DNA of 24,000 nucleotides from positions 1-24,000 of the forward strand of contig JAQBVF010000003.1 of assembly GCA_027623675.1 (NCBI GenBank), written 5' to 3'. A program made the translations under genes and the position numbers. Shown piece by piece: positions 918 to 21,143 of the stretch; position 1 is the stretch's first letter; each line of letters begins with the position of its first letter. Origin of the DNA: Chloroflexota bacterium. Lineage in GTDB: Bacteria > Chloroflexota > Dehalococcoidia > Lucifugimonadales > UBA3495. The notes below the pieces were generated by a model. It was not told the origin of the DNA, ran no database searches, and saw only the letters and a list, made by a program, of their open reading frames with translations.

Positions 918-1261
918 TTGCTCATACTGTATAGTACGGGCCGCATCGGTTGATTGAAACCCCGCCGATGCAAGAGCCATGGAAGTTACTAGCTTCTGTG
1001 GCTCTATCTATTTAAACTTTAACTCACCAGGTTAGGTTGTCATAACGTTTCGGGCTAAGTCAATAGAATATTGGGGAATATTGCGGACTGAAATTTATGA
1101 ATCCCAACCGCTGGTTTGTTATCCCACTTAAGCACCCGGTGCCACCGAAACATAGAGTTCAACGCCGAGCTCGGAAGGAAGATAGCAGACTCTCGTTCCA
1201 GCAAGAAAGCCCCAGTGCTTCAGGGAGCGGGCGGGGTTTCGTTTGCGGTGTCCTCGTTGGC

Positions 1262-3067
1262 TTAAAGCCCTATGGCGTAACAGGCGCGGCGGGGGTCGCC
1301 ACCGGTGGCCAGGTGGCCCGTCTGCGGGTCTCTTGCCGAGACGGTGGCGCCCAGGCCGCAGTTGGCGGCCCAGCCGATCTGATGGCCCAAGGCCCTCAGG
1401 GCGTCGGCCGTGCTCTCCGGGATGCCCGGCTCAAGGTCCAGGCGTCCGGGCAGGTAGGTGTGGGGGTAGAACGAGTTCTCCACGCTCTGGCTGGCGAACC
1501 GTGGCGCCTCCACCGCCTGCTGCGGGTCCATGCCGAAGAGCAGCACGTTCAAAACCAACTGCACGTTGGCTTGCGCCTGGTTGTCGCCGCCGGGACAACC
1601 GATGGTCATCACCGGTTGGCCGTCCTTGCGGGCCATGTAGTTGATCAAGGTGGTGCGGGGGCGCTTCCCCGGCTCGACCACGTTGGGGTGGCCCTCCTCG
1701 CAGTTGAACATCTCGATGCGGGTGCTGAGGCAGCAGCCCAGCTCCGGGAAGAACACCGACTTGGCGAAGGCCCCGCCGCTGATGGTGCCGCAGACCATGT
1801 TGCCCTGGGCGTCCAGCACCGACACGTGGGTGGTGCCTTCATGGGACGACGGGTCGGATGCGCCGTTGGACGCGCCGGTGGCGGCGGGCTTTCCGGTGGG
1901 GACCGCGCCGTTCCGCTTGGAGTGCTTCCAGGGGTCGCCGGGGGCGGGCTGCTCCGGGTAGGCGCGCTCCGGGTCGATCAGGCCGGCACGTTCGGCGGCG
2001 TATTCCTTGGACAGCAGGCCGTCGATGGGAATCTCGGCGTAATCCGGGTCGGCGTAGTATGCTTCGCGGTCGCCGAAGACCTGCTTCAACGCCTCGCAGA
2101 CGGTGTGGATATAGGTGGGCGAGTTGTGTCCCATGGCCTTCAGGTCAAAGTTCTCCAGGATGTTCAGCGTCTGCTGGAGCATGGGCCCCTGGCTCCAGGT
2201 GTCGTGGCCCAGGATCTCGTGTCCGGCGAAGGTGCTGGAGACCGGCTCGCCGAACTGACTCTTATAGTTTGCCAGGTCGTCCATGGACAGTATCCCGCCG
2301 ACTTTCGCCGACGACTCGACGATGGTCTTGGCCACCGAGCCTTTGTAGAAGACGTCCCGCGCGGCTTGGAGTCCGGCCTTCCTGTCGCCGGAGACGGCCG
2401 CGGCGGACATGGCTTTGAGGGTGTTCGCCAAGCCGGGCTGCACCAGAAGGTCGCCGGGCTGGGGCACCTGCCTGTCGTTGAAGAACACGTCCCAGCCGCC
2501 GGGCGGGTAGTTGTCGAACTGGACCGGCGTGCTCTTGGACTTGAGCCGCTCCAGCATGTATTCGTAGTGGGGGATGCCGTTCTCCGCGTAGTCGATGGCC
2601 GGCGCCAGCACCTGGTCGATGGGCAGGCTGCCATACCGCTCCAGAAGGGATATGAACGCCTCGACGACGCCCGGCACGGTGAACGAGAAGTGGGCCTTGT
2701 CACCAGGGCCGGTGGGGATGCGGTCCATGCCCTGGGACTTGTAGAAGTCGGCCGTGGCCTTGCCGGGAGCGCCGCCCTGGCCGCTCAGAGAGAGCATCTC
2801 ATCGCTGGCCGCGTCGTAGACCATGAACACGCCCTCCGCCGCCAGGGAGTACGACGCGATGGGTTCGATGACCGCGGCAGCGAAACCGGCGGCGGCCATG
2901 GCGTCGAAGGCGTTGCCGCCGTTCATCAGCATCCGCATGCCGGCCATGGACGTCAGGTAGTGTCCGCTGGAGATCACGCCCTTGGTGGACCGGACCACCG
3001 GACGCCCGGTCTCGGGCAGCTTAAGGTCTCCCTGTTCCAGTTCATGATGCGGTGTCTGGATGGCCAT
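1262..3067 (-). CDS. ggt: Gamma-glutamyltransferase family protein (Ntn hydrolase), apparently cytoplasmic with no signal peptide
   Basis: 601-aa ORF with GGT-family blocks: GHYLTSMAGMRMLMNGGNAFDAMAA near the N-terminus, the autoprocessing/catalytic Thr context HEGTTHVSVLDAQGNMV, and GCPGGDNQAQANVQLVLNVLLFGMDPQQAVEAPRF. AGGAG lies 6 nt upstream of the ATG at 3067. Confidence 0.9.
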   Translation of the reverse strand: MAIQTPHHELEQGDLKLPETGRPVVRSTKGVISSGHYLTSMAGMRMLMNGGNAFDAMAAAGFAAAVIEPIASYSLAAEGVFMVYDAASDEMLSLSGQGGAPGKATADFYKSQGMDRIPTGPGDKAHFSFTVPGVVEAFISLLERYGSLPIDQVLAPAIDYAENGIPHYEYMLERLKSKSTPVQFDNYPPGGWDVFFNDRQVPQPGDLLVQPGLANTLKAMSAAAVSGDRKAGLQAARDVFYKGSVAKTIVESSAKVGGILSMDDLANYKSQFGEPVSSTFAGHEILGHDTWSQGPMLQQTLNILENFDLKAMGHNSPTYIHTVCEALKQVFGDREAYYADPDYAEIPIDGLLSKEYAAERAGLIDPERAYPEQPAPGDPWKHSKRNGAVPTGKPAATGASNGASDPSSHEGTTHVSVLDAQGNMVCGTISGGAFAKSVFFPELGCCLSTRIEMFNCEEGHPNVVEPGKRPRTTLINYMARKDGQPVMTIGCPGGDNQAQANVQLVLNVLLFGMDPQQAVEAPRFASQSVENSFYPHTYLPGRLDLEPGIPESTADALRALGHQIGWAANCGLGATVSARDPQTGHLATGGDPRRACYAIGL

Positions 3068-3337
3068 GCTTTACTCCTGAGGTGTTCGGTTTGTAGGGGG
3101 TGGTTTGCGACAAATGATACCAGGCGTGCGGGTGTGGGGGTAGATGCTCGGGGCTAGAGAACCTGATCAACCGGCCATCGGGTCCTCTAATCCCGGCCTC
3201 GTGAAGCCGAACGAAACCCCAGTCACTCGCCACGAAAAATCGGTCATGGCCCTCCCGCCGTGGGAGTTGTTGGGGCCGATGGGTACCTGTCTGTCGCCCG
3301 CCGCGTACTTGGTGAGCCGATGTTGGCAGACCGGGAG

Positions 3338-4315
3338 CTAGATACTAACCGGCAATCCGGTCTGGGCCGATTCGTAGGCCTTCAACACCAGCGCAAGGTC
3401 GTTAAGTCCTTCTTCACCGGTCATCGCCGGCTCCGATGACTCTAAGATGCTCCTCCGGAACTCCAACACCATGGGTAAGATACCAAGGTGGTCATCGTCA
3501 AAACGCCTCGTTTCTTGGGAGTTGTCGTAGTCAATCTTGAGCAGGGAACCGCCCAACTCAAAAGACACGTTCGCAAGCGTGCCGGCCACCCTGACCCACG
3601 GACGCTCGGTTGCCTTGGCCACACTCCAAGAATGGTTGATGATGCCCACCGCCCCGCGCGCCGAGCGGGTGGTTACGACGATCCCGTCCTCGGCTTCCAG
3701 TCCCGGCGTCCCCTGTGGGACTTGAGCGGCATACAGCTGGTCTGGCCGCCCGGCTAGGTAGGCCAGGACACTGGCTTTGTGGATCCCGCCGTCAATGAAC
3801 ACTCCGCCCCCATTCCGTTCCCGGTCGTTGCGCCAGGAACCTGGATTGAAGGGGAATTCTTCCTGTAGCTGCACGAGGCGCACTTGGCCTAATGCTCCCG
3901 ACTCAATCAGCCGCTTCGTTTCCTGTACCGGCGCCAGGAACCTGTAGTTCTCGGCAACCATCAGATTAACCTGGGCATCAGCTGCGGCGGAAATGATTAA
4001 GCGGGCTTCTTCCAGGCTTCGGGCTATCGGTTTTTCCACGAGGATGTGTTTCTTCCCAGTTGCCGCCAGCCGGGCGTGCTCCAAGTGAAGGTCATGGGGA
4101 GTGCAGATGTAGAGGGCGTCTATCCTAGGGTCGCCGGCGGCGTCTTCATAAGAGCCGAAAGCCCCCGCGCCGCCGAACCTTTGGGAGTAGGCGATGGCTC
4201 GGCCAGGGTCTCGGCTGGCGAAGTAGAGGTCCACGCGGTCCCGCGCGGTCGCCAGCGATTCGGCAAATGTGCGCGCGAACCCGCCACAACCTATCACGCA
4301 GAGCGCCAGCTTCAT
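3338..4315 (-). CDS. Gfo/Idh/MocA family NAD(P)-dependent oxidoreductase
   Basis: N-terminal Rossmann motif MKLALCVIGCGGFARTF, the conserved HILVEKPIA (EKP) motif and a C-terminal alpha/beta domain. The start is taken at ATG 4315 (AAGGA 6 nt upstream) rather than the track's 4351. Confidence 0.85.
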   Translation of the reverse strand: MKLALCVIGCGGFARTFAESLATARDRVDLYFASRDPGRAIAYSQRFGGAGAFGSYEDAAGDPRIDALYICTPHDLHLEHARLAATGKKHILVEKPIARSLEEARLIISAAADAQVNLMVAENYRFLAPVQETKRLIESGALGQVRLVQLQEEFPFNPGSWRNDRERNGGGVFIDGGIHKASVLAYLAGRPDQLYAAQVPQGTPGLEAEDGIVVTTRSARGAVGIINHSWSVAKATERPWVRVAGTLANVSFELGGSLLKIDYDNSQETRRFDDDHLGILPMVLEFRRSILESSEPAMTGEEGLNDLALVLKAYESAQTGLPVSI

Positions 4316-4712
4316 TCTCTGTCCTTGACCATTGATTGGCCCACTGTACACCCTATCCCGCTAAGTGGGTAATCAGAACCCACATCGGCGTTGTTCCCGC
4401 CGACGAGCGGGGTTAGACCGGCGACCCAGGTTTTTATCAGCAGACCCGTCCTGCCTATTTCTGGCGAGCGGGCGACTGTTCCAGATATACTCATTCTAAT
4501 AAAGAGGGTGGGCCATACCCGTGTCCGTGAATTGTAAAGTTTCCAGGTCATGCGGGCACCCAGGCAGAGTGGTTTGCCTGAAGCGTCGGGGTTGCCAGGC
4601 TTCAACACAACTGGCCGAACTGCTGTTCGGCCAAATTTGAGTGTTCGCCCAACCCCACCGCCAAGGGCTAGCAATAGCTGAGGAGTCAATAATAGTCTGA
4701 AGGAGAAAACCG

Positions 4713-5428
4713 ATGGTCAACCCAATCGCACATTTTCAAAATCCCAGACTGGTCAACGCCATATTCGGTGCGACTGAACTCTCATGGATCTGGCTGATTG
4801 CCCGAGTCTACATCGGCTGGAATTGGCTGGAGGCTGGCTGGCACAAAGTAACCGATGACGCTTGGATGGATGGGGGGCAGCCCTTGAAGGCTTCTGGCAG
4901 CGCGCCATCTCTATTCCGGAGCAAGGCAGGCCCCCGATCTCTTATGACTGGTACCGGGAATTCCTAGAATACATGCTCAACCATGGCTGGGCGGTTTGGT
5001 TCAGTCCCCTGATCGCAGTGGGAGAAGTCATGGTGGGCCTAGGGTTGCTCCTGGGCGCTTTCACCGGCGTCGCCGCATTATTTGGCGCCGTCATGAACTG
5101 GAACTTCATGTTGGCAGGCACGGCCAGCACCAACCCAGTCCTAGGATTGATCGGGATCGGCGTGATGCTTGCTTGGAAAACATCGGGCTGGTGGGGTGTC
5201 GACCGGTTCCTCCTCCCCCGGGTGGGCGCTCCGTGGCAATCTGGCACGCTGTTTGGGCGCGCCAGCCTCCTCTCCCGCCCAACTAGCCGGCAGGAATTCC
5301 TCAGGGCGATGGAGGAGTGGACCAGGATGCTGATCGGGGTCGGCTTGGGGCTCTTCGCCCTTATCCCATATGCCCAGGATGGATGGCATGGAGACCGCTC
5401 TACGCCTCAAGAACACATTCCCCATTAA
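4713..5428 (+). pseudogene. DoxX/DoxD-like family membrane protein, reading frame broken at a G6 homopolymer (4872-4877)
   Basis: ORF 4713..4967 (..WIWLIARVYIGWNWLEAGWHKVTDDAWMDGG) and ORF 4862..5428 (..AALEGFWQRAI..YDWYREFLEYMLNHGWAVWFSPLIAVGEVMVGLGLLLGAFTGVAALFGAVMNWNFMLAGTASTNPVLG..) are the N- and C-terminal parts of one DoxX-like protein. Adding one G to the run restores AWMDGGAALEGFW. AAGGAG lies 7 nt upstream of ATG 4713. Confidence 0.7.
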
Positions 5429-5874
5429 CCGGGTGCGCCGTAAGCATCCTGAACTATATGGGTTAAACAGTATAATACGAGTACGAACAGAGTGATGGCT
5501 TTGAGGAGGTGACGACGAGCCATCCCACGCGATCGGGGTTCTGTTTTTAGCATATTGTCCTTTACTGTGTTACGAAATGTTGATATCTCTGTACGAATGC
5601 CAGCTGTTGATAGGCATACTTGGAATACGGCGGGTCGATTCGATGCGCCAGATAGTAGATTCAACTGGGTATTTTGTCAAGATGTTTTGGATGTTCGGCC
5701 ATACGGATTATCATGCTGAACGGTTGCGCAGTAGGTATTTAGCGCCGTGCCAACCGCAGACAGGTTCGGGCTTGAGGGTCGGACCGCCGCCACCGTCTTG
5801 GTGGCCGCCAGGCGGGCATTCTCCGCGCCTCCGCCGGTGTGAAGCACTCGCCTACGAATCAAGCTTAGATTCCG

Positions 5875-5904
5875 TTGACTATGAATGGCATAAATTTCTA
5901 TGAT
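5875..5904 (+). promoter_or_regulatory. Candidate sigma-70-like promoter for the heliorhodopsin gene
   Basis: TTGACT (5875-5880), an 18-nt spacer, then TATGAT (5899-5904), about 65 nt upstream of GTG 5971. Bracketed by near-identical AATCAAGCTT (5857-5866) and AATCAAAGCTT (5944-5954). Confidence 0.35.
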
Positions 5905-5970
5905 ATCGGCTGAATCACGTATCTATACCGATCAGTTTGGACCAATCAAAGCTTGGTGTTTATTTCTTAG

Positions 5971-6870
5971 GTGGTGGATTCGAAAAGATACTTCGAATAC
6001 GGCTCTAAGGCTGATGTTGTGAGAGGGCAGATGGAAGAAACCTCGAGAGGTCCGCTGCCTGCCGGCGGCGATGCGCCAACCCCCGGCGGGCCGGATGACG
6101 GCGGAAATGCCAGCACATTAGCAGGACTGCGCCGGTTCAACGCGATCATGGCCGTGTTCCACCTGGCCCAGGGAATCGTACTGATCTTGCTGAGCACCGA
6201 TTTCAGCCTGCCGGTAACTTCGTCATTCCTGAAGTTTGACGCAGTCGCCAACAAGCTGGTCGCGGCGCCCGACGAGATCGCCAGCCTTCCTTTGGCCCCA
6301 ATGATCGCCGGGTTCCTCTTTATCTCGGCGGCGGCGCATGCCGCGGTGTCGTCCCCCTGGTTCTTCCCGTGGTACGCGAGGAATCTCCGCAAGGGCGTCA
6401 ACTACGCGCGGTGGATCGAGTATTCCGTGAGCGCCTCGGTGATGATCGTGGTCATCGCCATGCTGGTGGGGATCTACGACATCGCCAGCCTCATCCTGAT
6501 CTTTGCGGTGAACGCGTCCATGATCCTGTTCGGTTGGCTGATGGAGCTGCACAATCAGACCACGGGAGAAACCGATTGGACCTCTTTTTGGTTCGGCACA
6601 TTCGCAGGGACCATCCCGTGGGTGGTGATCGCGGTATACCTGATCGGCTCCGGCAGCGGCGAAGGGGGGCCGCCAGGTTTTGTTTACGGGATCTTCGGCT
6701 CGATCTTCGTATTCTTCAACGTCTTCGCCATCAACATGGTCCTCCAATACAAGAAGATCGGCCCTTGGCGCGACTACCTATTCGGTGAACGGGCCTACAT
6801 CATATTGAGCCTGACGTCCAAGTCCATCCTGGCCTGGCAGGTGTTTGCCGGCACCCTGCGGCCGGTCTGA
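5971..6870 (+). CDS. Heliorhodopsin (retinal-binding 7-TM photoreceptor, inverted topology)
   Basis: Near-colinear similarity to heliorhodopsin 48C12 as I remember it: RFNAIMAVFHLAQG (TM1 His), RWIEYSVSASVMIV (counterion Glu, codon 6418-6420), FAVNASMILFGWL, FWFGTFAGTIPWVV, PGFVYGI, GERAYIILSLTSKSILAWQVFAGTLRP (Schiff-base Lys, codon 6820-6822). The start is ambiguous: GTG 5971, or ATG 6031 preceded by GAGAGGG. Confidence 0.9.
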   Translation: MVDSKRYFEYGSKADVVRGQMEETSRGPLPAGGDAPTPGGPDDGGNASTLAGLRRFNAIMAVFHLAQGIVLILLSTDFSLPVTSSFLKFDAVANKLVAAPDEIASLPLAPMIAGFLFISAAAHAAVSSPWFFPWYARNLRKGVNYARWIEYSVSASVMIVVIAMLVGIYDIASLILIFAVNASMILFGWLMELHNQTTGETDWTSFWFGTFAGTIPWVVIAVYLIGSGSGEGGPPGFVYGIFGSIFVFFNVFAINMVLQYKKIGPWRDYLFGERAYIILSLTSKSILAWQVFAGTLRPV

Positions 6871-6961: not shown

Positions 6962-8005
6962 TTGGCAGCACAAGAAGACCTAAGATTTAACTGGTCACAT
7001 CTGCCGCCGGTGGCGTCTCACCTGGCGTCGACCGGAGGTGAGATACGGTCGCGCCTGGAAGATTTCGTGGTTACCGAGATCCCCAAGTACCTGCCCAATG
7101 GCCAGGGACTGCACGCCTACGCTTTCATTGAGAAGAGGGGCCTCACCACCCACGACGTGATCTCCCACCTGCGGTCTCAGGGCGTGGCGATGAAAGATGT
7201 TGGCGTGGCCGGCCGGAAGGACAAATACGCAGTAACACGCCAATGGATCAGCGTGCCCGCAGAGTCAGAGAACGCCCTCGCGTCTCTGGACGGATTGGAT
7301 GGGGTAACGGTGCTCGAAACCTCCCGCCACCGAAACAAACTGGGCGTGGGGCACCTTGCCGCCAACCGGTTCGAGATCACGGTCCGCGGCCCGGTGGACG
7401 ACTGGCAGACCCGAGCTCAGGCCATCTTGGGCCACCTGGAGCGGCAAGGATTGCCCAATTACTTCGGTCCTCAGCGGTTTGGCCGGTTCAATAGCAATGT
7501 TATCGACGCCATGCGGCTGCTCAAAGGCGCCGATGTCCCTGGGGGGCGCAGACTCCAGATGTTCTTTCTCTCTTCGCTGCAGTCCCATCTATTCAATTGG
7601 AACCTGAAACGGCGGATGGAGTCGGGCTTCTACCAGCAGGTGCTGGAGGGTGACAGGGCACAGAAGCACGACACGGGCGGCGTGTTCGTGGTGGAAGACG
7701 CGGCCAGAGAAAGCGAACGGGCGGCCAGGTTGGAGATCAGTGCGTCCCTGCCTTTGCACGGGCACAAGGTGCGTTACAGCGCTGGGCATGCTGGGAGATT
7801 GGAACAGGAGATCTTGGACCACTTCGGTTTTTCCCGCGGCGACCTGCGATTCTTGGGGCTGGGTTCATGGAGGATCAGCCGGGTGCGGGTAGACGAGATA
7901 TCCCTAAAGACGGTGGACGGTGGGTATACGGTCGGGTTTACCCTTCCCAGTGGCGCCTATGCCACCTGTCTGCTGCGTGAGTTGGTCGGCCCAGAAGCTC
8001 GATAA
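6962..8005 (+). CDS. truD: tRNA pseudouridine(13) synthase TruD
   Basis: 347 aa with TruD blocks: EDFVVTEIP, the catalytic Asp motif GVAGRKDKYAVTRQW, LPNYFGPQRFG and FTLPSGAYATCLLRELV. The TTG start at 6962 has GAGG 5 nt upstream. Confidence 0.9.
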   Translation: MAAQEDLRFNWSHLPPVASHLASTGGEIRSRLEDFVVTEIPKYLPNGQGLHAYAFIEKRGLTTHDVISHLRSQGVAMKDVGVAGRKDKYAVTRQWISVPAESENALASLDGLDGVTVLETSRHRNKLGVGHLAANRFEITVRGPVDDWQTRAQAILGHLERQGLPNYFGPQRFGRFNSNVIDAMRLLKGADVPGGRRLQMFFLSSLQSHLFNWNLKRRMESGFYQQVLEGDRAQKHDTGGVFVVEDAARESERAARLEISASLPLHGHKVRYSAGHAGRLEQEILDHFGFSRGDLRFLGLGSWRISRVRVDEISLKTVDGGYTVGFTLPSGAYATCLLRELVGPEAR

Positions 8006-8937: not shown

Positions 8938-10221
8938 GTGACTTTTCTTAAAAGTGTCATAAACATTCCGCGCGGGGCACTGGCCATATTCGCCATGTTG
9001 GTTCTGGCCGCGGCGGTCGCTTGCGGCGGATCTGATCCTACTTCAGCTCCGGCAACCGCCGCGCCTGATTCTGGCGGTGGGTCCGGCTCGGGTAGCGGCT
9101 CCGCGGAAACCATCAAGGTCGGCGTCCTCCATTCCCTGTCTGGCACCATGGCGATCAGCGAGACGGCGGTACGCGATGCCACGCTGTTGGCGATTGACGA
9201 GATCAACGCCTCCGGCGGCGTGCTAGGCAAACAACTTGAACCCGTCGTGGAAGACGGCGCGTCCGATTGGCCGACCTTTGCTGAAAAAGCGCGGAAGTTG
9301 ATTCAATCTGACGATGTTGCCGTGGTCTTTGGAGGCTGGACCAGCGCGAGCCGAAAGGCCATGCTTCCCGTTTTCGAAGGTCTCAACGGTCTTCTGTTTT
9401 ACCCGGTCCAGTACGAAGGTTTGGAAGCATCGCCCAATATCTTCTACACCGGCGCAACGACGAACCAGCAGATAGTCCCAGCCGTGGAATCGTTGCTGGA
9501 AGACGGCAAGACCCGGTTCTTCCTGCTTGGCTCCGACTATGTTTTCCCCCGCACTTCCAATCTGATCATCAACGCTCAACTCAAGGCCGCCGGCCTAGAG
9601 GCGGTTGGTGAGGAGTACACACCTTTGGGCCACGTGGAATACTCCACCGTGATCAGCAAGATCATCGCCGCCGACCCGGACGTGGTGTTCAACACTTTGA
9701 ACGGTGACTCCAATGTGGCTTTCTTCAAGCAATTGAAGGACGCGGGTATCGGAGCAGAGGACATCGTCACCCTGTCGGTCAGTGTTGCCGAGGAAGAGAT
9801 CGTTGGCATCGGGGCCGAAAACATCAAGGACCACTTGGTCGCCTGGAACTATTTCCAGACCACCGATACGCCCGAAAACGAGAAATTCGTCGCGGCCTTT
9901 AAAGCCAAGTATGGTAGCGACCGTGTGACTGACGACCCGATTGAAGCCGGATATTTCGGGGTTTACCTCTGGGCCGCCGCCGCTGAGAAAGCCGGCAGCA
10001 CAGACGTCGCCGCCGTAAAGGCTGCCGCGCCCGGAATCTCCTTCCAAGCGCCAGGCGGATTGGTTACCATCAACGGCGATAACCAGCACGTTTCCAAGAC
10101 TGTTCGCGTTGGTAGAGCCCTTGGCGACGGACAGATCGAAGAGATATGGAACTCGGGTGGACCAGTTAGCCCTGACCCGTATCTGGAAACATACGAGTGG
10201 GCTTCCCAGTTCCACCGGTAA
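8938..10221 (+). CDS. urtA: Urea ABC transporter substrate-binding lipoprotein UrtA
   Basis: [80 protein letters not shown] is typical of UrtA. The N-terminus has a signal peptide with lipobox LAAAVAC followed by a Gly/Ser linker ([10 protein letters not shown]). GTG 8938 has AAGGAG 7 nt upstream. Confidence 0.9.
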
Positions 10222-10289
10222 CCAGCACTTGGTCCAGATATAGGTAAACGACTGTCCCTAAATAGCGTTGTTTACTATCTCGCAGGCGA

Positions 10290-10324
10290 ACGGAATGGTA
10301 CCCGGCTAACGGGTACCATTCCGT
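10290..10324 (+). terminator. Strong intercistronic stem-loop between urtA and urtB (possible partial terminator or mRNA-stabilising element)
   Basis: ACGGAATGGTACCCG / CGGGTACCATTCCGT forms a perfect 15-bp stem with a 5-nt loop. No U-tract follows. A second 9-bp hairpin lies at 10244-10252 / 10267-10275. Confidence 0.4.
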
Positions 10325-10435
10325 GCATCGGCTGCATTGGCAAGGAAGATCACTGGATGCTGCTGGCAGACCAGATCAGCCGGTTTCCGGACGGAATATC
10401 TTGAACGACGGACCGCTTAACATGGACATCCGGAA

Positions 10436-11341
10436 ATGACAGATCCAGCAACGTTTGCTCTGCTTTTATTCAACGGCCTAAGCATGGGTTCGATCCTGCT
10501 GCTGGTTGCTCTTGGCCTGGCCCTCTCTTTCGGTTTGATGAACATCATAAATCTCGCCCACGGCGAGTTTATTATGATTGGCGCCTACACCGCTTATTCC
10601 ATTCAGCAGTCAGCGATATCCCTCACCGGAGACGCGTCGCCCGCGATCACCTACCTAATCTCGATTCCGGCCTCCTTCCTGGTGGCCGGGATCATGGGTT
10701 TTGCGACTGAACGACTGATCATCAGACACCTTTATGGCCGTTCGCTGGACACGCTCCTGGCTACTTGGGGCGTCGGCCTCGCCCTGCAGCAACTGGCCCG
10801 AAGCATCTTCGGAGCGCCAAACGTACAGGTTGTTTCGCCGGGGTGGCTCGCAGGAAGCCTTCATGTCACGGATGTTTTAGTTTTCCCGATCAAACGGATC
10901 TTTATCATAGTATTGGCGTTCGTTTGCGTTGGGGGTCTCTTCTGGTACATGTACAAGACTCATTGGGGTCGCAGGACCAGGGCGGTGATGCAAAACCGGC
11001 AAATGGCCTCCAGCTTAGGCGTGGCCGCCAATCAGGTTGACGGTCTCACGTTTGCACTGGGTTCCGGTTTGGCCGGAGTTGCTGGTTGCACCCTAGCCCT
11101 GATCGGACCCATCGGCCCTTCGATGGGAACGTTCCACATCGTCGACGCATTCATGGTTGTTATTTTGGGGGGTATGGGGCAAATAACCGGCGCGATCGTC
11201 GCAGCCCTGACCATCGGGATGCTGAATAGCATCTTCGAATTCTCCACCAACGCGGTGCTGGGCAAAGTAATGGTATTTGCGATGATTATCTTGTTCCTGC
11301 AGTGGAAACCGAACGGTCTGATGCAGCTGAGTAAACGATAG
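10436..11341 (+). CDS. urtB: Urea ABC transporter permease UrtB (LivH-like)
   Basis: 301-aa polytopic protein with LivH-family blocks ([47 protein letters not shown]), positioned directly after urtA. Confidence 0.88.
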
Positions 11342-11375
11342 ATCAAATGAGATATTCGCCCATCTCGGACTGTGT

Positions 11376-12509
11376 ATGTTAGACAGATTGATCGAGAATA
11401 TTCCAACCGGCGTCCGGACCCAGCTGATTCGTTTCGGTCCGCTACTGCTGCTCGCCATTTTCCTATTCGCGGCCCCGCTGGTGTTGTCTGACTTCCGTGT
11501 GAACCTCATCGGCAAGATCCTCACCTTTGCCATATTGGCTTTGTCACTGGACCTGATATGGGGTTACGCCGGGATGCTCAGTCTTGGTCACGGTGTTTTC
11601 TTTGGCCTGGGCGCCTACGCGTTCGCAATGTTCTTAAAGCTCGAGGCATCCGCAGGCAAGCTTCCGGATTTCATGTTCTGGAGTGGACTCGAAGAGTTGC
11701 CCTTTTTCTGGTCACCCTTCCAGCATGCCTGGTTCGCCCTCCCCATGGTAATCATCATGCCGGGCGTGCTGGCCGGCGCCATCGGCTACCTGGTCTTTAG
11801 AAGCCGCATCACCGGTGTTTACTTTGCGTTGATAACCCAGGCGTTGGCCTTGATGGTCAGCATCCTGTTCATCGGCCAACAAGCCTACACCGGCGGGACC
11901 AATGGACTGACCAATCTTACTGCGGTCTTCGGCCACTCGATCTACAGCACCAGTACCCAGCAGACCTTGTATTACATCACTGTGGTATCCCTTTTGGCCG
12001 CCTACCTGTTGTGTATGGGAATCGTGGCCTCGCCATTTGGACGGTTGCTGGTGGCGATCCGCGACGACGAGAACCGGGTGCGATTTTCGGGATATGACCC
12101 GGCGATAATCAAGTCGGTGATATTTTTTGTCTCGGCTAGCCTGGCCGGGATCGGTGGCGCTTTGTATGCCCCGCAGGTGGGTATCGTGTCTCCATCGATC
12201 ATGGGGATCGTCCCTTCGATCGAGGTGGCCGTGTGGGTGGCGATCGGCGGTCGAGGAACTCTGATCGGAGCGATAATCGGGGCGATCATCGTGAACTACG
12301 CCAAGAGTTTGCTCAGCGAATCCTTCCCGGATTTTTGGACTTATTTCTTGGCGGTATTATTCATCGGCGCCGTGCTATTGTTCCCCCGGGGTATCATCGG
12401 ACTATTGCGGCGGGAAGGATGGCACTGGCCCCAATGGGTAAGTGTCGCCCGCGCTCGGATCAGCTTCCTCACCAACTTCGCGAATACCATGAGGCGGACG
12501 GCCAGATAA
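11376..12509 (+). CDS. urtC: Urea ABC transporter permease UrtC (LivM-like)
   Basis: 377-aa polytopic protein with LivM-family blocks ([46 protein letters not shown]). The stop TAA at 12507-12509 overlaps the urtD ATG by 1 nt. Confidence 0.88.
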
Positions 12510-13441
12510 TGGAACAGAATGGACATATTGGAGGAGCCGATATCAGCAACGGCCATCAGGACGACGGCACTCAAAATATCCTTTCCGTTTCTGACGTAAC
12601 CATCAGTTTCGATGGGTTCACGGTCTTGGACAATCTGGGATTTTTCATTAACCGGGGCGAGATGCGTTTTCTCATCGGCCCTAACGGCGCGGGAAAGACG
12701 ACCCTTCTTGACGTGATAACCGGTAAGTCAAAACCGGACCGTGGAATTGTCACATTTGATGGCGAAGTGAACCTGTCACGCCGCTCGGAACATGCCGTGG
12801 TGAAGCTTGGCATCAGCCGTAAATTCCAAGCACCGACAGTGTTCAACAGTTTGTCGATCCTCCAAAACCTGGAAACATCCGTCCGCTTTCGAAATCGGGT
12901 CATCGGGATGTTCAGATCGCTTTCGGCCACACAATCACAGATCGTTCAACAAACGTTGGAACTGATCGGGTTTGAGGGCCGCGCTCATCGGAATGCTGGG
13001 GTGCTATCCCACGGGGAGCGTCAATGGCTGGAGATTGGGATGCTGTTGGTACAGGAACCCAAACTGCTGCTGCTCGATGAACCGGTGGCGGGCATGACCC
13101 GGCGAGAACGTGATCGGACCGGGGAATTACTCCAAGAGATCGCCAGAGAAAGGTCTGTTCTAGTTGTCGAGCACGACATGGAATTCGTCCGGCGGTTCGC
13201 CAAAACGGTGACTGTACTGCATCAGGGAAAGGTCTTGAGCGAAGGAACCATGGACATGGTCCAGCAAGACCCCAAAGTAGTCCATGCTTATCTGGGTCGC
13301 AGCAGAGAAGCATCGCGGCACGCAGTCCCAGCAGGTCATAAGCTATCCGCAAATGGATCTGGGGCGTTGGAGCCTGAGGGATCACCGGTGTGGGGGAACC
13401 AGCAAAACCTGGTGAAAGATGAGCGGAATGCTGTCAATTAG
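12509..13441 (+). CDS. urtD: Urea ABC transporter ATP-binding protein UrtD (with N- and C-terminal extensions)
   Basis: Walker A GPNGAGKTT, signature LSHGERQWLEIG, Walker B LLLLDEP and FDGF near the N-terminus, as in UrtD. The start is taken at ATG 12509 (TAATG overlap with urtC); the track's 12233 start lies inside urtC. About 50 residues follow the usual ..AYLGR end. Confidence 0.85.
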   Translation: MEQNGHIGGADISNGHQDDGTQNILSVSDVTISFDGFTVLDNLGFFINRGEMRFLIGPNGAGKTTLLDVITGKSKPDRGIVTFDGEVNLSRRSEHAVVKLGISRKFQAPTVFNSLSILQNLETSVRFRNRVIGMFRSLSATQSQIVQQTLELIGFEGRAHRNAGVLSHGERQWLEIGMLLVQEPKLLLLDEPVAGMTRRERDRTGELLQEIARERSVLVVEHDMEFVRRFAKTVTVLHQGKVLSEGTMDMVQQDPKVVHAYLGRSREASRHAVPAGHKLSANGSGALEPEGSPVWGNQQNLVKDERNAVN

Positions 13442-14129
13442 CGGTCTGTCCGCCGGATATGGCCAAAGCACGATCCTCAAGGAGGTTAACATTGACCTCC
13501 TTTCGGGTCAGGCTATCTGTCTGATCGGGCGAAACGGAGTGGGTAAGACCACGCTGCTCAAGACAATCATGGGACACATTCGGCCCAACTTGGGAAAGAT
13601 CGTCCTAGAAGACAATGACGTGACCACCTGGGCAGCCAACAGGCGGGCTGTCGCCGGTATCGGTTACGTTCCTCAGGGTCGGGAGATATTCCCGTTTCTG
13701 ACCGTACACGAGAACTTGCTGATGGGGCTTGAAGCTCTGCCAAAGAGACAGCGTTCTATCGACGCCCTTGACGGGATGTACGATAAGTTTCCGGCCCTTA
13801 AGACATTTCGCACCAAGGCAGCAGGAACCCTCAGCGGCGGGCAGCAGCAACAGTTGGCCCTGGCCAGGGTCCTGGTCCGGAAACCCAAAGTATTATTACT
13901 AGACGAACCCACGGAGGGTTTGCAGCCCAACATAGTCCAAGAGATCGAGGACCTTCTCCACGGTATCCGCGATTCGCATGAAACTTCGATATTGCTGGTG
14001 GAGCAATTCTTAGACTTTGCCATGAGTGTCGCTGATCACTGCTACGTGATGGAAAACGGCGAGATTGTTTTGGAAGGTCAATCCAAAGACCTCGACCGAA
14101 CGTTGGTCAGAGAATATCTGGCTGTCTAA
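13419..14129 (+). CDS. urtE: Urea ABC transporter ATP-binding protein UrtE
   Basis: Walker A GRNGVGKTT, signature LSGGQQQQLALAR, Walker B LLLLDEPTEG. The LivF-like architecture and operon position fit UrtE. It overlaps the urtD 3' end by 23 nt. Confidence 0.9.
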   Translation: MSGMLSISGLSAGYGQSTILKEVNIDLLSGQAICLIGRNGVGKTTLLKTIMGHIRPNLGKIVLEDNDVTTWAANRRAVAGIGYVPQGREIFPFLTVHENLLMGLEALPKRQRSIDALDGMYDKFPALKTFRTKAAGTLSGGQQQQLALARVLVRKPKVLLLDEPTEGLQPNIVQEIEDLLHGIRDSHETSILLVEQFLDFAMSVADHCYVMENGEIVLEGQSKDLDRTLVREYLAV

Positions 14130-14180: not shown

Positions 14181-14210
14181 TCAACCGATTAAAGCATGAG
14201 GGATTACAAA

Positions 14211-15548
14211 ATGGTTTCACGGAACGCCGAGGAAATAGCATTCGTGGTGCAGGCCGCCAGCGAAGCCGACGTCAAATTTGTTCGTTTATGGTTTCCGGAT
14301 ATTCTGGGGCAGCTGAAAGGGTTCGCGATCGGAGTAGACGACCTGGAGGACTCCATCCTTCACGGGGTGGGTTTCGATGGGTCGGCGATCGAAGGTTTCG
14401 CCAGGATACAAGAGAGCGATATGCGTGCCTTCCCCGATCCAACGACTTTTACATTGCTGCCGTGGCGACCGCAGCAGAACGCCGTCGCCAGGATGTTCTG
14501 CGACATCCGTGGCCCCCGGGGCGAGGTCTTCAGCGGCGACCCGCGACTCGCTTTGAAGCGCAATCTGGAAAAAGTGGCCCGGTTGGGCTACACCTACTAT
14601 GTGGGAACCGAGTTGGAATTCTTCTATCTCAAGAATTCCATCAACCCTGAACCTCTGGACAACAGCGGCTACTTCGACCAACTCTCAGGCCAACTGGCCA
14701 GCGACCTCCGCCGGGACACGGTGCTGAACCTCTCTGAGATGGGCGTGCCGGTTAAATACTCCCATCACGAGGCGGCACCCAGCCAACATGAGATTGACCT
14801 ACAGTACACCGGCGCGCTGGCTATGGCTGACAGCGTGATTACGGCCAAACTGTTGATTAAAGAGTTAGCGCAATCACGGGACGTATACGCAACTTTCATG
14901 CCCAAACCCCTCGCCGGCGTGAACGGGTCGGGCATGCACACGCATCAGTCGTTATTCAAAGGCGACAACAACGTTTTCTATGACGGGGACGACGAGCATT
15001 ACCTGTCTGATATCGGGAAGAAATTTATCTCAGGTCTGCTGTATCACGCGCCCGAGATCACGTTGGTGACGAACCAATGGATCAATTCGTACAAGCGCCT
15101 GATACCGGGGTTTGAGGCGCCGGTTTATGCGTCTTGGGCGCATGTTAACCGGTCTGACCTGATCAGGGTCCCCGCCTATAAGCCAGGATATGAAAGCTCG
15201 ATGCGCATCGAGTACCGGGCGCCCGACCCGGCCTGCAATCCCTACCTGGCATTCAGCGTCATGTTGGCCGCCGGCATGAAGGGAATCGAAGAAGATTACC
15301 CGATACAACAACAGGTGGTCGGCAACGTTGCTGAAATGACCGAGGAGCGGCGTCAGTCATTGGGCATCAAGACGCTGCCGAGCAGCCTGGGTGAAGCGAT
15401 CGCATTGGCGGAGGACAGTGAACTGCTCGAGGAAGCGCTGGGTTCCCACATCCACCGCAGTTTCATAGAGAATAAGAAGATCGAGTGGCGAGAGTACCGG
15501 GCGACGATCACCGACTATGAGATCAACCGTTACCTTTCGGTCCTGTGA
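14211..15548 (+). CDS. glnA: Glutamine synthetase, type I (alpha-like; no obvious adenylylation loop)
   Basis: GS-I blocks: VKFVRLWFPDILGQLKGF, FDGSAIEGF, YYVGTELEFFY, HHEAAPSQHEID, KPLAGVNGSGMHTHQS, NSYKRLIPGFEAPV, RIEYRAPDPACNPYLAF. The region equivalent to the E. coli NLYDLP adenylylation site reads GNVAEMTEE. ATG 14211 has GAGGG 8 nt upstream; the alternative ATG 14196 has no RBS. Confidence 0.9.
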   Translation: MVSRNAEEIAFVVQAASEADVKFVRLWFPDILGQLKGFAIGVDDLEDSILHGVGFDGSAIEGFARIQESDMRAFPDPTTFTLLPWRPQQNAVARMFCDIRGPRGEVFSGDPRLALKRNLEKVARLGYTYYVGTELEFFYLKNSINPEPLDNSGYFDQLSGQLASDLRRDTVLNLSEMGVPVKYSHHEAAPSQHEIDLQYTGALAMADSVITAKLLIKELAQSRDVYATFMPKPLAGVNGSGMHTHQSLFKGDNNVFYDGDDEHYLSDIGKKFISGLLYHAPEITLVTNQWINSYKRLIPGFEAPVYASWAHVNRSDLIRVPAYKPGYESSMRIEYRAPDPACNPYLAFSVMLAAGMKGIEEDYPIQQQVVGNVAEMTEERRQSLGIKTLPSSLGEAIALAEDSELLEEALGSHIHRSFIENKKIEWREYRATITDYEINRYLSVL

Positions 15549-15974: not shown

Positions 15975-17689
15975 GCCTGGGAATACCTCGCCGGCAATAT
16001 TCCGACCTGTTTGGTCCGACCACCGGTGACCGTATCCGGCTGGCCGACACCAGTCTGTTCATCGAGATCGAAGAAGACTTAACTGCCCACGGAGATGAGA
16101 GCAAGTTTGGCGGCGGGAAGGTCTTGCGAGACGGCATGGGGCAATCATCTTGGGCGGCCCGGTCCGATGGGGTTCTCGACACGGTCGTGACCAACGCGGT
16201 GATTCTTGACCACTGGGGAATCATCAAAGCCGACGTGGGAATCCGCGACGGGCGAATCATCGCCATAGGCAGGGCCGGCAATCCTGACATCATGAATGAC
16301 ATATCCCCCAACATGGTTGTGGGGGCGGGGACGGAGGTCATCGCCGGCGAAGGAATGATCCTTACCCCTGGTGGGATCGATCCTCACGTCCATTTCATCT
16401 GCCCGCAACTGGCCTGGGAGGCTTTGGCGTCCGGGGTGACTACCCTGATCGGCGGGGGCACCGGACCAGCCACCGGGACCAAAGCGACGACGTGTACGCC
16501 CGGTGTTTGGAACATTCACCGGATGCTGGAGGCCGCGGAAGAGATTCCGATCAATCTTGGTTTCTTGGGTAAGGGCAACGCGTCTTATCAAGAACCCCTC
16601 GCAGAGCAGATTCTTGCCGGGGCAATGGGCCTGAAACTTCATGAAGACTGGGGCACCACCCCGGCGGCGATAGACTCGGCTTTGACTGCCGCCGAGTTGT
16701 ACGACGTTTCGGTGGCCATCCACTCGGACACGCTGAACGAGGCTGGCTATCTGGAAGATACCATCCGGGCTTTCAAAGGCCGGACGATCCATACCTACCA
16801 TACGGAAGGCGCTGGCGGTGGCCATGCACCCGATATCATCCGCGTGTGCGGTGAGGCCAACTGCCTGCCGTCGTCGACCAACCCCACCATGCCGTTCACC
16901 GTTAACACCATGGATGAGCACTTGGATATGCTCATGGTCTGTCACCATCTGAACGCGAGCGTGCCCGAAGACCTGGCTTTCGCCGAGTCACGGATCAGGG
17001 CCGAAACCATTGCCGCCGAAGACATCCTGCAGGACATGGGTGCGATCAGCATGATGTCGTCTGATTCCCAGGCGATGGGCCGAGTGGGCGAAGTTATCCT
17101 CCGTACTTGGCAGACAGCCGACAAGATGAAGGTCCAGCGGGGTCCTTTGGCCGGAGAAAAACCTGGGAACGACAATCTACGCGCTCGTCGTTACATCGCC
17201 AAATATGCCATTAACCCCGCCATAGCCAATGGCTTTGCCGATGAAGTTGGGTCTATCGAAGTCAACAAATTGGCAGACATGGTGCTTTGGCGGCCGGCAT
17301 TCTTCGGAGTAAAGCCGGAACTAGTGATCAAGGGCGGGTTTATCGCCGGGGCCGCCATGGGTGACCCTAACGCCTCGATCCCCACTCCACAGCCCGTGAT
17401 TTTCCGTCCGATGTTTGGAGCGATGGGCCGGGCGCGTTACACAACTTCCGTAACATTCCTGTCCGCCGCGGCGATAGAGGCTGGCGTACCCCAAAGTTTG
17501 GGCCTGCAGAAACGGACCGTGGCCGTTCATAACTGCAATAACTTAACCAAGGCCGACATGGTTAATAATGACGCCTTACCGAAGATCGAGGTTGATCCCG
17601 ACACCTATGAGGTGCGCGCCGACGGCGAATTGCTAAAGTGCGAACCAGCCGAGACCTTGCCGATGGCCCAGCGTTATTTTTTGTTCTGA
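15971..17689 (+). CDS. ureC: Urease subunit alpha (UreC)
   Basis: 572 aa with nickel-site and flap motifs: [22 protein letters not shown] (carbamylated Lys), [44 protein letters not shown]. Confidence 0.95.
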
Positions 17690-20294: not shown

Positions 20295-20369
20295 TGGTCG
20301 GGGTGAGAGGATTTGAACCTCCGGCCTCTACGTCCCGAACGTAGCGCGCTACCCCTGCGCTACACCCCG
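20295..20369 (-). tRNA. tRNA-Pro (anticodon CGG), CCA encoded
   Basis: Minus-strand read: CGGGGTG TA GCGC AGGGGTA GCGC G CTACG TTCGGGA CGTAG AGGCC GGAGG TTCAAAT CCTCT CACCCCG A CCA. It forms a full cloverleaf with a 7-bp acceptor stem, anticodon loop TTCGGGA and T-loop TTCAAAT. Confidence 0.92.
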
Positions 20370-20567: not shown

Positions 20568-21143
20568 CTACTGATCAAGCATCTCCAAGGTCTTCTCCTC
20601 CAGCACTTCGCTGTTCAACGCTCCGGTCCACTTGTTGTGAATCGTGCCGTCGGCATTGATGAATATGGTGGTGGGCATACCCAAGACTTGGTATTTTTGG
20701 ACCACGTCGCTGTCCGGGGTGAAACCGGCAGGGTAGGTCAAGTCCAGTTCCCGCAACAGGTCCTTGGCATCATCCTGAGTGCCCAATCCGGTGAACTGGC
20801 CCAGGTCGATCCCCAGCAAAAGCGCCCGGTCTTTGAACTTGTCATTGAAAACTTCCAGGTCGGGCATCTCGGCCCGGCATGGGGGGCACAGTCCCGCCCA
20901 GAAGTTGAGCACGATGGGCCGTTCGCCGATCAGGTCTTGGAGAGTCACTTCCTGGCCGCCGACCACGTCATCACCCTGAAACATGGTGATGGCGAAATCG
21001 GGCGCCTGGCTACCTGCGCTGCTGCCGCAGGCGATCGCCGCCAACGTCAGCACCAACGCCAATGGGAGCAGGAACCTCACCTTGCTTTTCTTGATCGCGG
21101 CTCTCCCGCCGAGAGTCGAGTTGTCTATCGAATCGCCAGTCAA
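20568..21143 (-). CDS. TlpA/ResA-like thiol-disulfide oxidoreductase lipoprotein (thioredoxin fold, CPPC)
   Basis: Signal peptide plus lipobox LTLAAIAC, then APDF..RPIVLNFWAGLCPPCRAEMP..VLGMPTTIFI, which is characteristic of TlpA/ResA/DsbE. The TTG start at 21143 has GGAGG 5 nt upstream. Confidence 0.85.
   Translation of the reverse strand: MTGDSIDNSTLGGRAAIKKSKVRFLLPLALVLTLAAIACGSSAGSQAPDFAITMFQGDDVVGGQEVTLQDLIGERPIVLNFWAGLCPPCRAEMPDLEVFNDKFKDRALLLGIDLGQFTGLGTQDDAKDLLRELDLTYPAGFTPDSDVVQKYQVLGMPTTIFINADGTIHNKWTGALNSEVLEEKTLEMLDQ

Follow-up and report, generated by a model that had tools for sequence, protein, structure and literature searches.

The cellular role of heliorhodopsins is still largely an open question. 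Structures have been solved for the family prototype 48C12, from an actinobacterial fosmid (6su3, 6su4, 6uh3, 9ljj), and for TaHeR, from a Thermoplasmatales archaeon (6is6, 7clj, 7u55). AbHeR of Actinobacteria bacterium IMCC26103 binds and up-regulates the adjacent glutamine synthetase (GS), and the experimentally mapped contacts between heliorhodopsin and partner lie in intracellular loops 2 and 3 (ICL2 and ICL3), not in the N-terminus (PMC9529153). Another member, OcHeR, modulates the ATP-binding cassette (ABC) transporter OmrDE, and the ten recurrent neighbour groups listed in that study include neither TruD nor urease (PMC11109279). Extended heliorhodopsins (MORN-HeR, Znf-HeR and ntv1-10) carry an extra cytoplasmic segment of more than 50 residues before the first transmembrane helix (TM1); some of these extensions are recognizable domains that carry conserved Cys motifs, and those that can be interpreted are of the MORN or zinc-ribbon type (Bulzu et al., 2021). 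Here, we compare with these systems a heliorhodopsin gene of a Chloroflexota bacterium (Dehalococcoidia). The gene lies at 5971–6870 of a 24,000-nucleotide stretch of DNA (contig JAQBVF010000003.1, assembly GCA_027623675.1), and this whole stretch is referred to as the window.

Our analysis indicates with high confidence that the gene encodes a canonical Chloroflexota heliorhodopsin translated from ATG 6031, and that the N-terminal tail of the protein is a disordered, weakly constrained extension derived from the leader, holding no conserved functional module. For the field, a heliorhodopsin that came with an evident partner or a novel domain would be of value; this gene offers neither.

Family assignment and signature residues

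The open frame at 5971–6870 on the plus strand gives 299 residues when read from the first GTG, and 279 residues in its best-supported form. The gene and the codons of its signature residues are located as follows.

6031–6870, plus strand: heliorhodopsin gene in its best-supported form, from ATG 6031 to the stop TGA at 6868–6870, 279 residues
6160–6162, plus strand: codon of the TM1 His, H44 of 279 residues (H64 of 299), in VFHL, equivalent to 48C12 H23
6337–6339, plus strand: codon of the TM2 His, H103 of 279 residues (H123 of 299), equivalent to 48C12 H80
6418–6420, plus strand: codon of the Schiff-base counterion Glu, E130 of 279 residues (E150 of 299), in RWIEYS, equivalent to 48C12 E107 and TaHeR E108
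6808–6822, plus strand: TM7 SxxxK motif, with the Ser at 6808–6810 and the retinal-binding Lys at 6820–6822, in SLTSKSILAWQ

Two family profiles match the protein over their whole length. Pfam PF18761 (Heliorhodopsin; cut-off 26.7 bits) scores 348 bits (E 3e-104), with model positions 1–242 of 242 on residues 53–296 of the 299-residue form. The NCBIfam equivalog NF038020, 'heliorhodopsin HeR' (curated cut-off 100 bits), scores 350 bits, with positions 1–244 of 244 on residues 33–276 of the 279-residue form. Both matches lie far beyond chance. Among solved structures, phmmer aligns the protein to TaHeR (6is6, E 2e-72) and 48C12 (6su3, E 5e-68). We found no evidence that contradicts the family assignment, and the identification of the 5971–6870 product as a heliorhodopsin is secure.

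The signature residues were paired by residue-by-residue alignment to the solved heliorhodopsins, and their conservation was read from family alignments of 26 and 53 sequences. The columns of H44, H103, E130, S260 and K264 are invariant in both alignments. S260 and K264 of the 279-residue form (S280 and K284 of 299) form the SxxxK motif and correspond to S237 and K241 of 48C12, and the counterion Glu sits inside an R-W-x-E-Y motif in TM3. An earlier note, made from the letters of the window, had named the product a heliorhodopsin on the basis of the TM1 His, the counterion Glu and the retinal Lys, and had proposed a Pfam profile search and an alignment to 48C12 and TaHeR as checks. Both bear it out: the profile match is strong and full-length, the Lys and Glu occupy homologous positions in the alignment, and the codons of these two residues lie where the note had placed them.

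The predicted structure agrees with this assignment. The alignment of 53 sequences was used to build an AlphaFold2 model (mean predicted local distance difference test score, pLDDT, 79), which contains seven transmembrane helices and a beta-hairpin in extracellular loop 1 (ECL1), with strands at residues 66–70 and 75–79. When the model is searched against the PDB with Foldseek, every one of the ten best matches is a heliorhodopsin structure (E 1e-13 to 1e-16; target-normalized TM-score 0.78–0.84, with 0.83–0.84 for 6is6 and 7clj), and type-1 rhodopsins are listed only at E>4e-3. With the cytoplasmic and outer sides assigned as in the solved heliorhodopsins, we count four Lys or Arg residues in ICL1, four in ICL3 and an RR pair before TM1, and zero to two in the extracellular loops; like the homology to solved heliorhodopsins, this distribution fits a cytoplasmic N-terminus.

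The gene is already known and correctly named in NCBI, and it is a typical member of its family. A 100% identical 279-residue protein (P0001) is deposited as 'heliorhodopsin HeR [Chloroflexota bacterium]' under MDA0263809.1 and MDA1269960.1. Assemblies from JGI, ENA and Logan also contain the identical protein; their contigs reach 234 kb and keep the gene order of the window, and the same contig context is seen in four public assemblies. Of the 8000 candidates that our homology search scored, at least 7982 are relatives at E<=1e-20. The nearest of them belong to Chloroflexota/Dehalococcoidia metagenome-assembled genomes and are 70–81% identical.

Beyond the observed sequence, predicted fold and residue conservation, we infer the topology, chromophore binding and photocycle of the window protein from what is known of the family. 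It would span the membrane with seven helices and have its N-terminus in the cytoplasm and its C-terminus outside, and all-trans retinal would be bound to Lys264 as a protonated Schiff base stabilized by the single counterion Glu130, with His44 and His103 nearby. Light would isomerize the retinal and give a long-lived photointermediate, presumably with no pumping of ions. A conformational change at the cytoplasmic face may then be read by partner proteins, so that the protein would act as a light sensor or regulator.

Translation start and N-terminal tail

The canonical in-frame starts are GTG 5971, GTG 5974, GTG 6019 and ATG 6031, followed by ATG 6148 inside TM1. Translation most likely begins at ATG 6031, giving 279 residues. 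This codon is preceded by GAGAGGG, and it is the start on all four public contigs that were read and in both NCBI protein accessions. In addition, the relative P0003 has a TTG start at the position aligned to ATG 6031, with an AGGAG Shine-Dalgarno sequence before it. We also considered, and rejected, a start further downstream, which would dispense with the tail: no ATG, GTG or TTG occurs between 6031 and 6148, and initiation at 6148 would cut away LRRFN and half of TM1. The tail must therefore be translated, since no later usable start codon exists.

6031–6129, plus strand: N-terminal tail, 33 codons, MEETSRGPLPAGGDAPTPGGPDDGGNASTLAGL, acidic and Gly/Pro/Ala-rich, before the conserved Arg of LRRFN

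The tail contains the low-complexity stretch PLPAGGDAPTPGGPDDGGNAS, as the earlier note had described. That note had also estimated 30–50 residues before TM1, depending on the start codon; a longer tail is indeed present, and the upper estimate gives way to 33 residues with ATG 6031. The net charge of the tail is -4, 85% of its residues are P, G, D, A, T, S, E or N, and it has no Cys. Its GC content at third codon positions (GC3), 0.58, is similar to that of non-coding DNA and below the 0.84 of the remaining gene. The anchor motif could be located in 112 of the 120 best relatives, and in these the tails range from 7 to 42 residues (median 14.5) and cluster at 10, 12, 24 and 26.

We notice that the tail has diverged much further than the protein core. 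Aligned with the three closest orthologues, it is identical at 6 of 16, 11 of 31 and 16 of 32 positions (35–50%), against cores that are 81–83% identical, and only one to five positions are identical in each of the next dozen relatives. DNA alignment with the two closest loci, L086 and L085, revealed homology between their 5' leaders and the tail-coding DNA of the window. In L086, the closest relative (81% identical), the codon aligned to ATG 6031 is GCG, and the only start, an ATG aligned with Thr-17 of the 279-residue form, lies 16 residues ahead of the conserved Arg. L086 has no start before this proximal ATG, so its protein lacks the distal half of the tail. In L085, the codon aligned to ATG 6031 is GTG, and a proximal ATG as in L086 is also present.

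These alignments fit a movement of the start codon within a small clade, by migration into the leader, which gives a weakly constrained, disordered extension. The tail would have arisen as the start codon came to lie further upstream than in the closest relatives, so that former leader was absorbed into the coding region. More generally, N-terminal 'extensions' in heliorhodopsins can stem from start-codon migration or from the choice of a gene caller, and orthologues should be checked before such a segment is read as a docking site.

A separate observation concerns the leaders of the two relatives. At 6317–6397 of L086 and at about 9969–10049 of L085, a 26-codon upstream open reading frame (uORF) crosses, in a different frame, the DNA that is homologous to the window tail. 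Its product in L086 is MLPKSPTSTTGRKQQEESRRLPAVAF. In both relatives the uORF start has a strong Shine-Dalgarno sequence, AGGAGG, with a spacing of 5 nt to the ATG, and the TGATG that closes the uORF overlaps the ATG of the heliorhodopsin gene, in a translational-coupling layout. The remnant of this uORF in the window is only ATG-TTG-TGA at 6014–6022.

The window gene is preceded by an intergenic region of about 600 nt, which contains a promoter-like site.

5875–5904, plus strand: promoter-like site TTGACT-18-TATGAT, matching 10 of 12 consensus positions (consensus match only)

Three promoter-like sites were found against 1.5 expected in shuffled sequences, so that such a match is weak evidence. 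Meanwhile, a 16-nt direct repeat, ATACTT[G/C]GAATACGGC, occurs at 5616–5631 and 5988–6003 on the plus strand, upstream of ATG 6031; the copies are identical at 15 of 16 positions, and the second lies between the promoter-like site and ATG 6031. We considered the repeat as an operator and rejected it: only two copies are present, and at least two matches also arise in 4 of 100 shuffles. The repeat may be due to chance or may be a regulator site.

Gene neighbourhood and alternative readings

The remaining genes of the window are listed here, as those downstream of the heliorhodopsin gene bear on its possible function.

1262–3067, minus strand: gamma-glutamyltranspeptidase, called on public contigs
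3338–4351, minus strand: Gfo/Idh/MocA oxidoreductase, divergent
about 4862–5428, plus strand: DoxX-like membrane protein
6962–8005, plus strand: truD (tRNA pseudouridine-13 synthase), 91 nt past the heliorhodopsin stop, Pfam TruD 240 bits
8289–19957, plus strand: nitrogen-assimilation cluster ureA, urtABCDE, glnA, ureB, ureC, ureF, ureG, ureD, from Pfam and NCBIfam matches
20295–20369, minus strand: tRNA-Pro (CGG)
20568–21143, minus strand: AhpC/TSA-family thiol peroxidase
21339–23996, minus strand: Mfd/TRCF transcription-repair coupling factor, running past the window end

In the nitrogen-assimilation cluster, the urease operon is split: urtABCDE (8938–14129) and a type I GS gene (14196–15548) lie between ureA, encoding the gamma subunit, and ureB-ureC. 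No ureE is found between ureC and ureF. The start of ureA is ambiguous, with 89 or 131 residues given by the gene callers and the Pfam match beginning at residue 34 of the 131-residue frame. The start of truD is ambiguous as well (TTG 6962 for 347 residues or ATG 7010 for 331), and its score against TIGR00094 is 167.2, just under the cut-off of 172.2. The gap between truD and ureA is at least 283 nt, which suggests a separate transcription unit.

One alternative reading, which we regard as improbable, takes the heliorhodopsin as a light-dependent regulator of these downstream products, binding the type I GS and/or the urea ABC transporter in the manner of AbHeR with AbGS and of OcHeR with OmrDE. 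It draws on the order of the heliorhodopsin gene, truD, ureA, urtABCDE, glnA, ureBC and ureFGD on one strand, on the two published precedents (PMC9529153; PMC11109279) and on the KK motif of ICL3 (QYKK), which is present in the protein. However, the GS gene is 7.3 kb away with eight genes in between and is thus not adjacent, the gap between truD and ureA separates the cluster from truD, and the QYKK motif is near-universal in the family and therefore undiagnostic. In the literature library that was searched, we found no paper joining heliorhodopsin with urease.

The lack of conservation of the neighbourhood speaks against such a regulator as well. By tblastn, we compared all 19 window proteins with 164 other heliorhodopsin loci, comprising 80 from GTDB representatives, 80 from metagenomes and four of the closest relatives; 102 of these loci are at least 8 kb long. 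GS, UreA, UreB, UreC and UrtA have no match in the flanks of any of the 164 loci, the closest relatives (74–81% identity) included. The only other matches are generic ABC ATPases at 25–29% identity and a single TruD, in L086. The pair of heliorhodopsin gene and truD is thus kept in L086 (TruD 80% identity) and is absent from the other 163 loci. Since GS, urease and UrtA are missing at all these loci, the adjacency of the heliorhodopsin gene to the urease/urt/GS cluster is specific to this genome, and it is weak evidence of function. The cluster echoes the published link between heliorhodopsin and GS, yet it is unconserved at any other locus examined.

The flanks of the relatives differ from those of the window. 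The L085 heliorhodopsin gene is flanked by glycine-cleavage genes, and those of L087 and L088 by unrelated genes. In L086 (4606–6087) and L087 (5530–8048), a divergent NAD-epimerase/NmrA/DUF2867 gene lies ahead of the heliorhodopsin gene. L087 additionally has a protein with B12-binding and helix-turn-helix domains, an architecture like that of the light-responsive regulators CarH and LitR, and a DUF1722 protein. These flanks hint at a light-responsive neighbourhood, which is absent from the window.

A second alternative, which seems to us quite unlikely, concerns the tail itself. The earlier note had proposed it as a candidate partner-docking segment, and in this reading the acidic tail would be a functional cytoplasmic docking or regulatory segment that might recruit a partner or fold onto the basic intracellular loops, gating the binding of partners. 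The N-terminus of heliorhodopsins is cytoplasmic (family knowledge; PMC9529153), translation of the tail is unavoidable, its length is in the top four of the 112 relatives, and its charge of -4 is opposite to that of the K/R-rich ICL1 and ICL3. Furthermore, the P0003 tail has a similar composition and begins at the aligned position, and N-terminal fusions (MORN, zinc ribbon) are known in other heliorhodopsins (Bulzu et al.). However, the tail sequence is unconserved even in orthologues with cores at 81–83% identity, its distal half is untranslatable in L086, and its GC3 resembles that of non-coding DNA. The AlphaFold2 model shows residues 1–22 as coil, with a pLDDT of about 51, and starts the TM1 helix at residue 23. 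The tail lies outside both family profiles and matches no domain of Pfam or NCBIfam; 10–12 residues suffice in most relatives; and the mapped partner contacts are in ICL2 and ICL3 (PMC9529153). The evidence on the tail argues against a conserved docking module, which is left unsupported.

The two ideas can be joined in the proposal that the heliorhodopsin was recruited as a light switch for urea/ammonium assimilation (GS and/or Urt), in which the basic cytoplasmic loops, which bind partners in other heliorhodopsins, would meet an intramolecular competitor or tether in the acidic, lineage-specific tail; we consider this very doubtful.

The weakest alternative concerns the start codon and the following stretch.

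5971–6030, plus strand: 20-codon in-frame stretch between GTG 5971 and ATG 6031, probably 5' leader and not coding

Translation from GTG 5971, which would give the 299-residue form with 53 residues before the conserved Arg, is highly improbable: the frame is open from 5971 and a single ENA gene call elsewhere (P0121) uses this form, but GTG 5971 abuts a TAG at 5968, the sequence upstream is T-rich with no Shine-Dalgarno sequence, the 60-nt segment to ATG 6031 has the composition of the upstream intergenic DNA (GC 0.48, GC3 0.55), no relative has alignable sequence there, and the four public contigs and both NCBI accessions prefer ATG 6031.

Some observations weigh against our preferred reading of a canonical heliorhodopsin with a leader-derived tail. 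In the comparison of tail lengths, which the earlier note had suggested, the window tail falls within the range of its 112 relatives and at the same time ties for third longest among them. The P0003 tail is likewise acidic and Gly-rich, and selection at the level of composition is possible. The type I GS and the ABC importer are 2–8 kb downstream on the same strand, and a lineage-specific link is possible despite the non-conservation.

We also searched the leader of about 600 nt and the spacers for an RNA element or riboswitch; Rfam gives nothing at the gathering threshold, and the sole match at E<1 in the search of the leader and the spacer between the heliorhodopsin gene and truD is mir-584, a chance match. 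This spacer folds no better than shuffled sequence (z = -0.3). An intrinsic terminator after the heliorhodopsin gene was considered and rejected: the match at 6847–6866 is a weak consensus match, and such sites are no more numerous than expected from shuffled sequence.

Two further observations concern features elsewhere in the window. The 686-residue open reading frame at 1097–3157 (plus strand), which has no Pfam match, is a shadow frame of the gamma-glutamyltranspeptidase gene on the minus strand. Inside ureC, at 16123–16421 on the minus strand, the Rfam model 5_ureB_sRNA (RF02514) matches in antisense with 76 bits against a gathering threshold of 40. The likeliest source of this match is the conserved coding sequence of urease alpha, not a real antisense small RNA.

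Comparison with described heliorhodopsins

Like the extended heliorhodopsins of Bulzu et al. (2021), the window protein has an extra cytoplasmic segment before TM1. Those extensions exceed 50 residues and the N-terminal fusions among them are recognized by a domain or a Cys-rich motif, whereas the window tail is 33 residues long, domain-free, low in complexity and unconserved, which places it outside the N-terminal domain fusions.

With AbHeR, the window protein shares the family, a type I GS gene on the same strand and a Gfo/Idh/MocA oxidoreductase gene nearby. The AbHeR gene is directly adjacent to its GS gene in one operon, whereas the GS gene of the window is 7.3 kb away inside the urease/urt cluster. 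The window oxidoreductase gene is divergent, and the window arrangement occurs in no other relative. The 'GS group' of heliorhodopsins is characterized by an adjacent GS in the operon, shared by phylogenetic neighbours (PMC9529153), and the window gene falls outside it.

The entries MDA0263809.1 and MDA1269960.1 represent the same gene, and the sole disagreement is the alternative 299-residue gene call (P0121). The prototype 48C12 is 45–47% identical to the window protein, and its H23, H80, E107, S237 and K241 are all matched. It has 12 residues before the conserved position, against 33 in the window protein, a difference of about 21 residues.

TaHeR differs in its archaeal host, in having about 15 fewer N-terminal residues (residue 33 of the 279-residue form corresponds to chain residue 18) and in an ECL3 that is 4 residues shorter than that of the window protein (GSGSGEGGPPG). 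At 49% identity, the two proteins have in common the seven-helix fold, the ECL1 beta-hairpin, the counterion Glu, both His residues, the SxxxK motif and the QYKKIG motif of ICL3.

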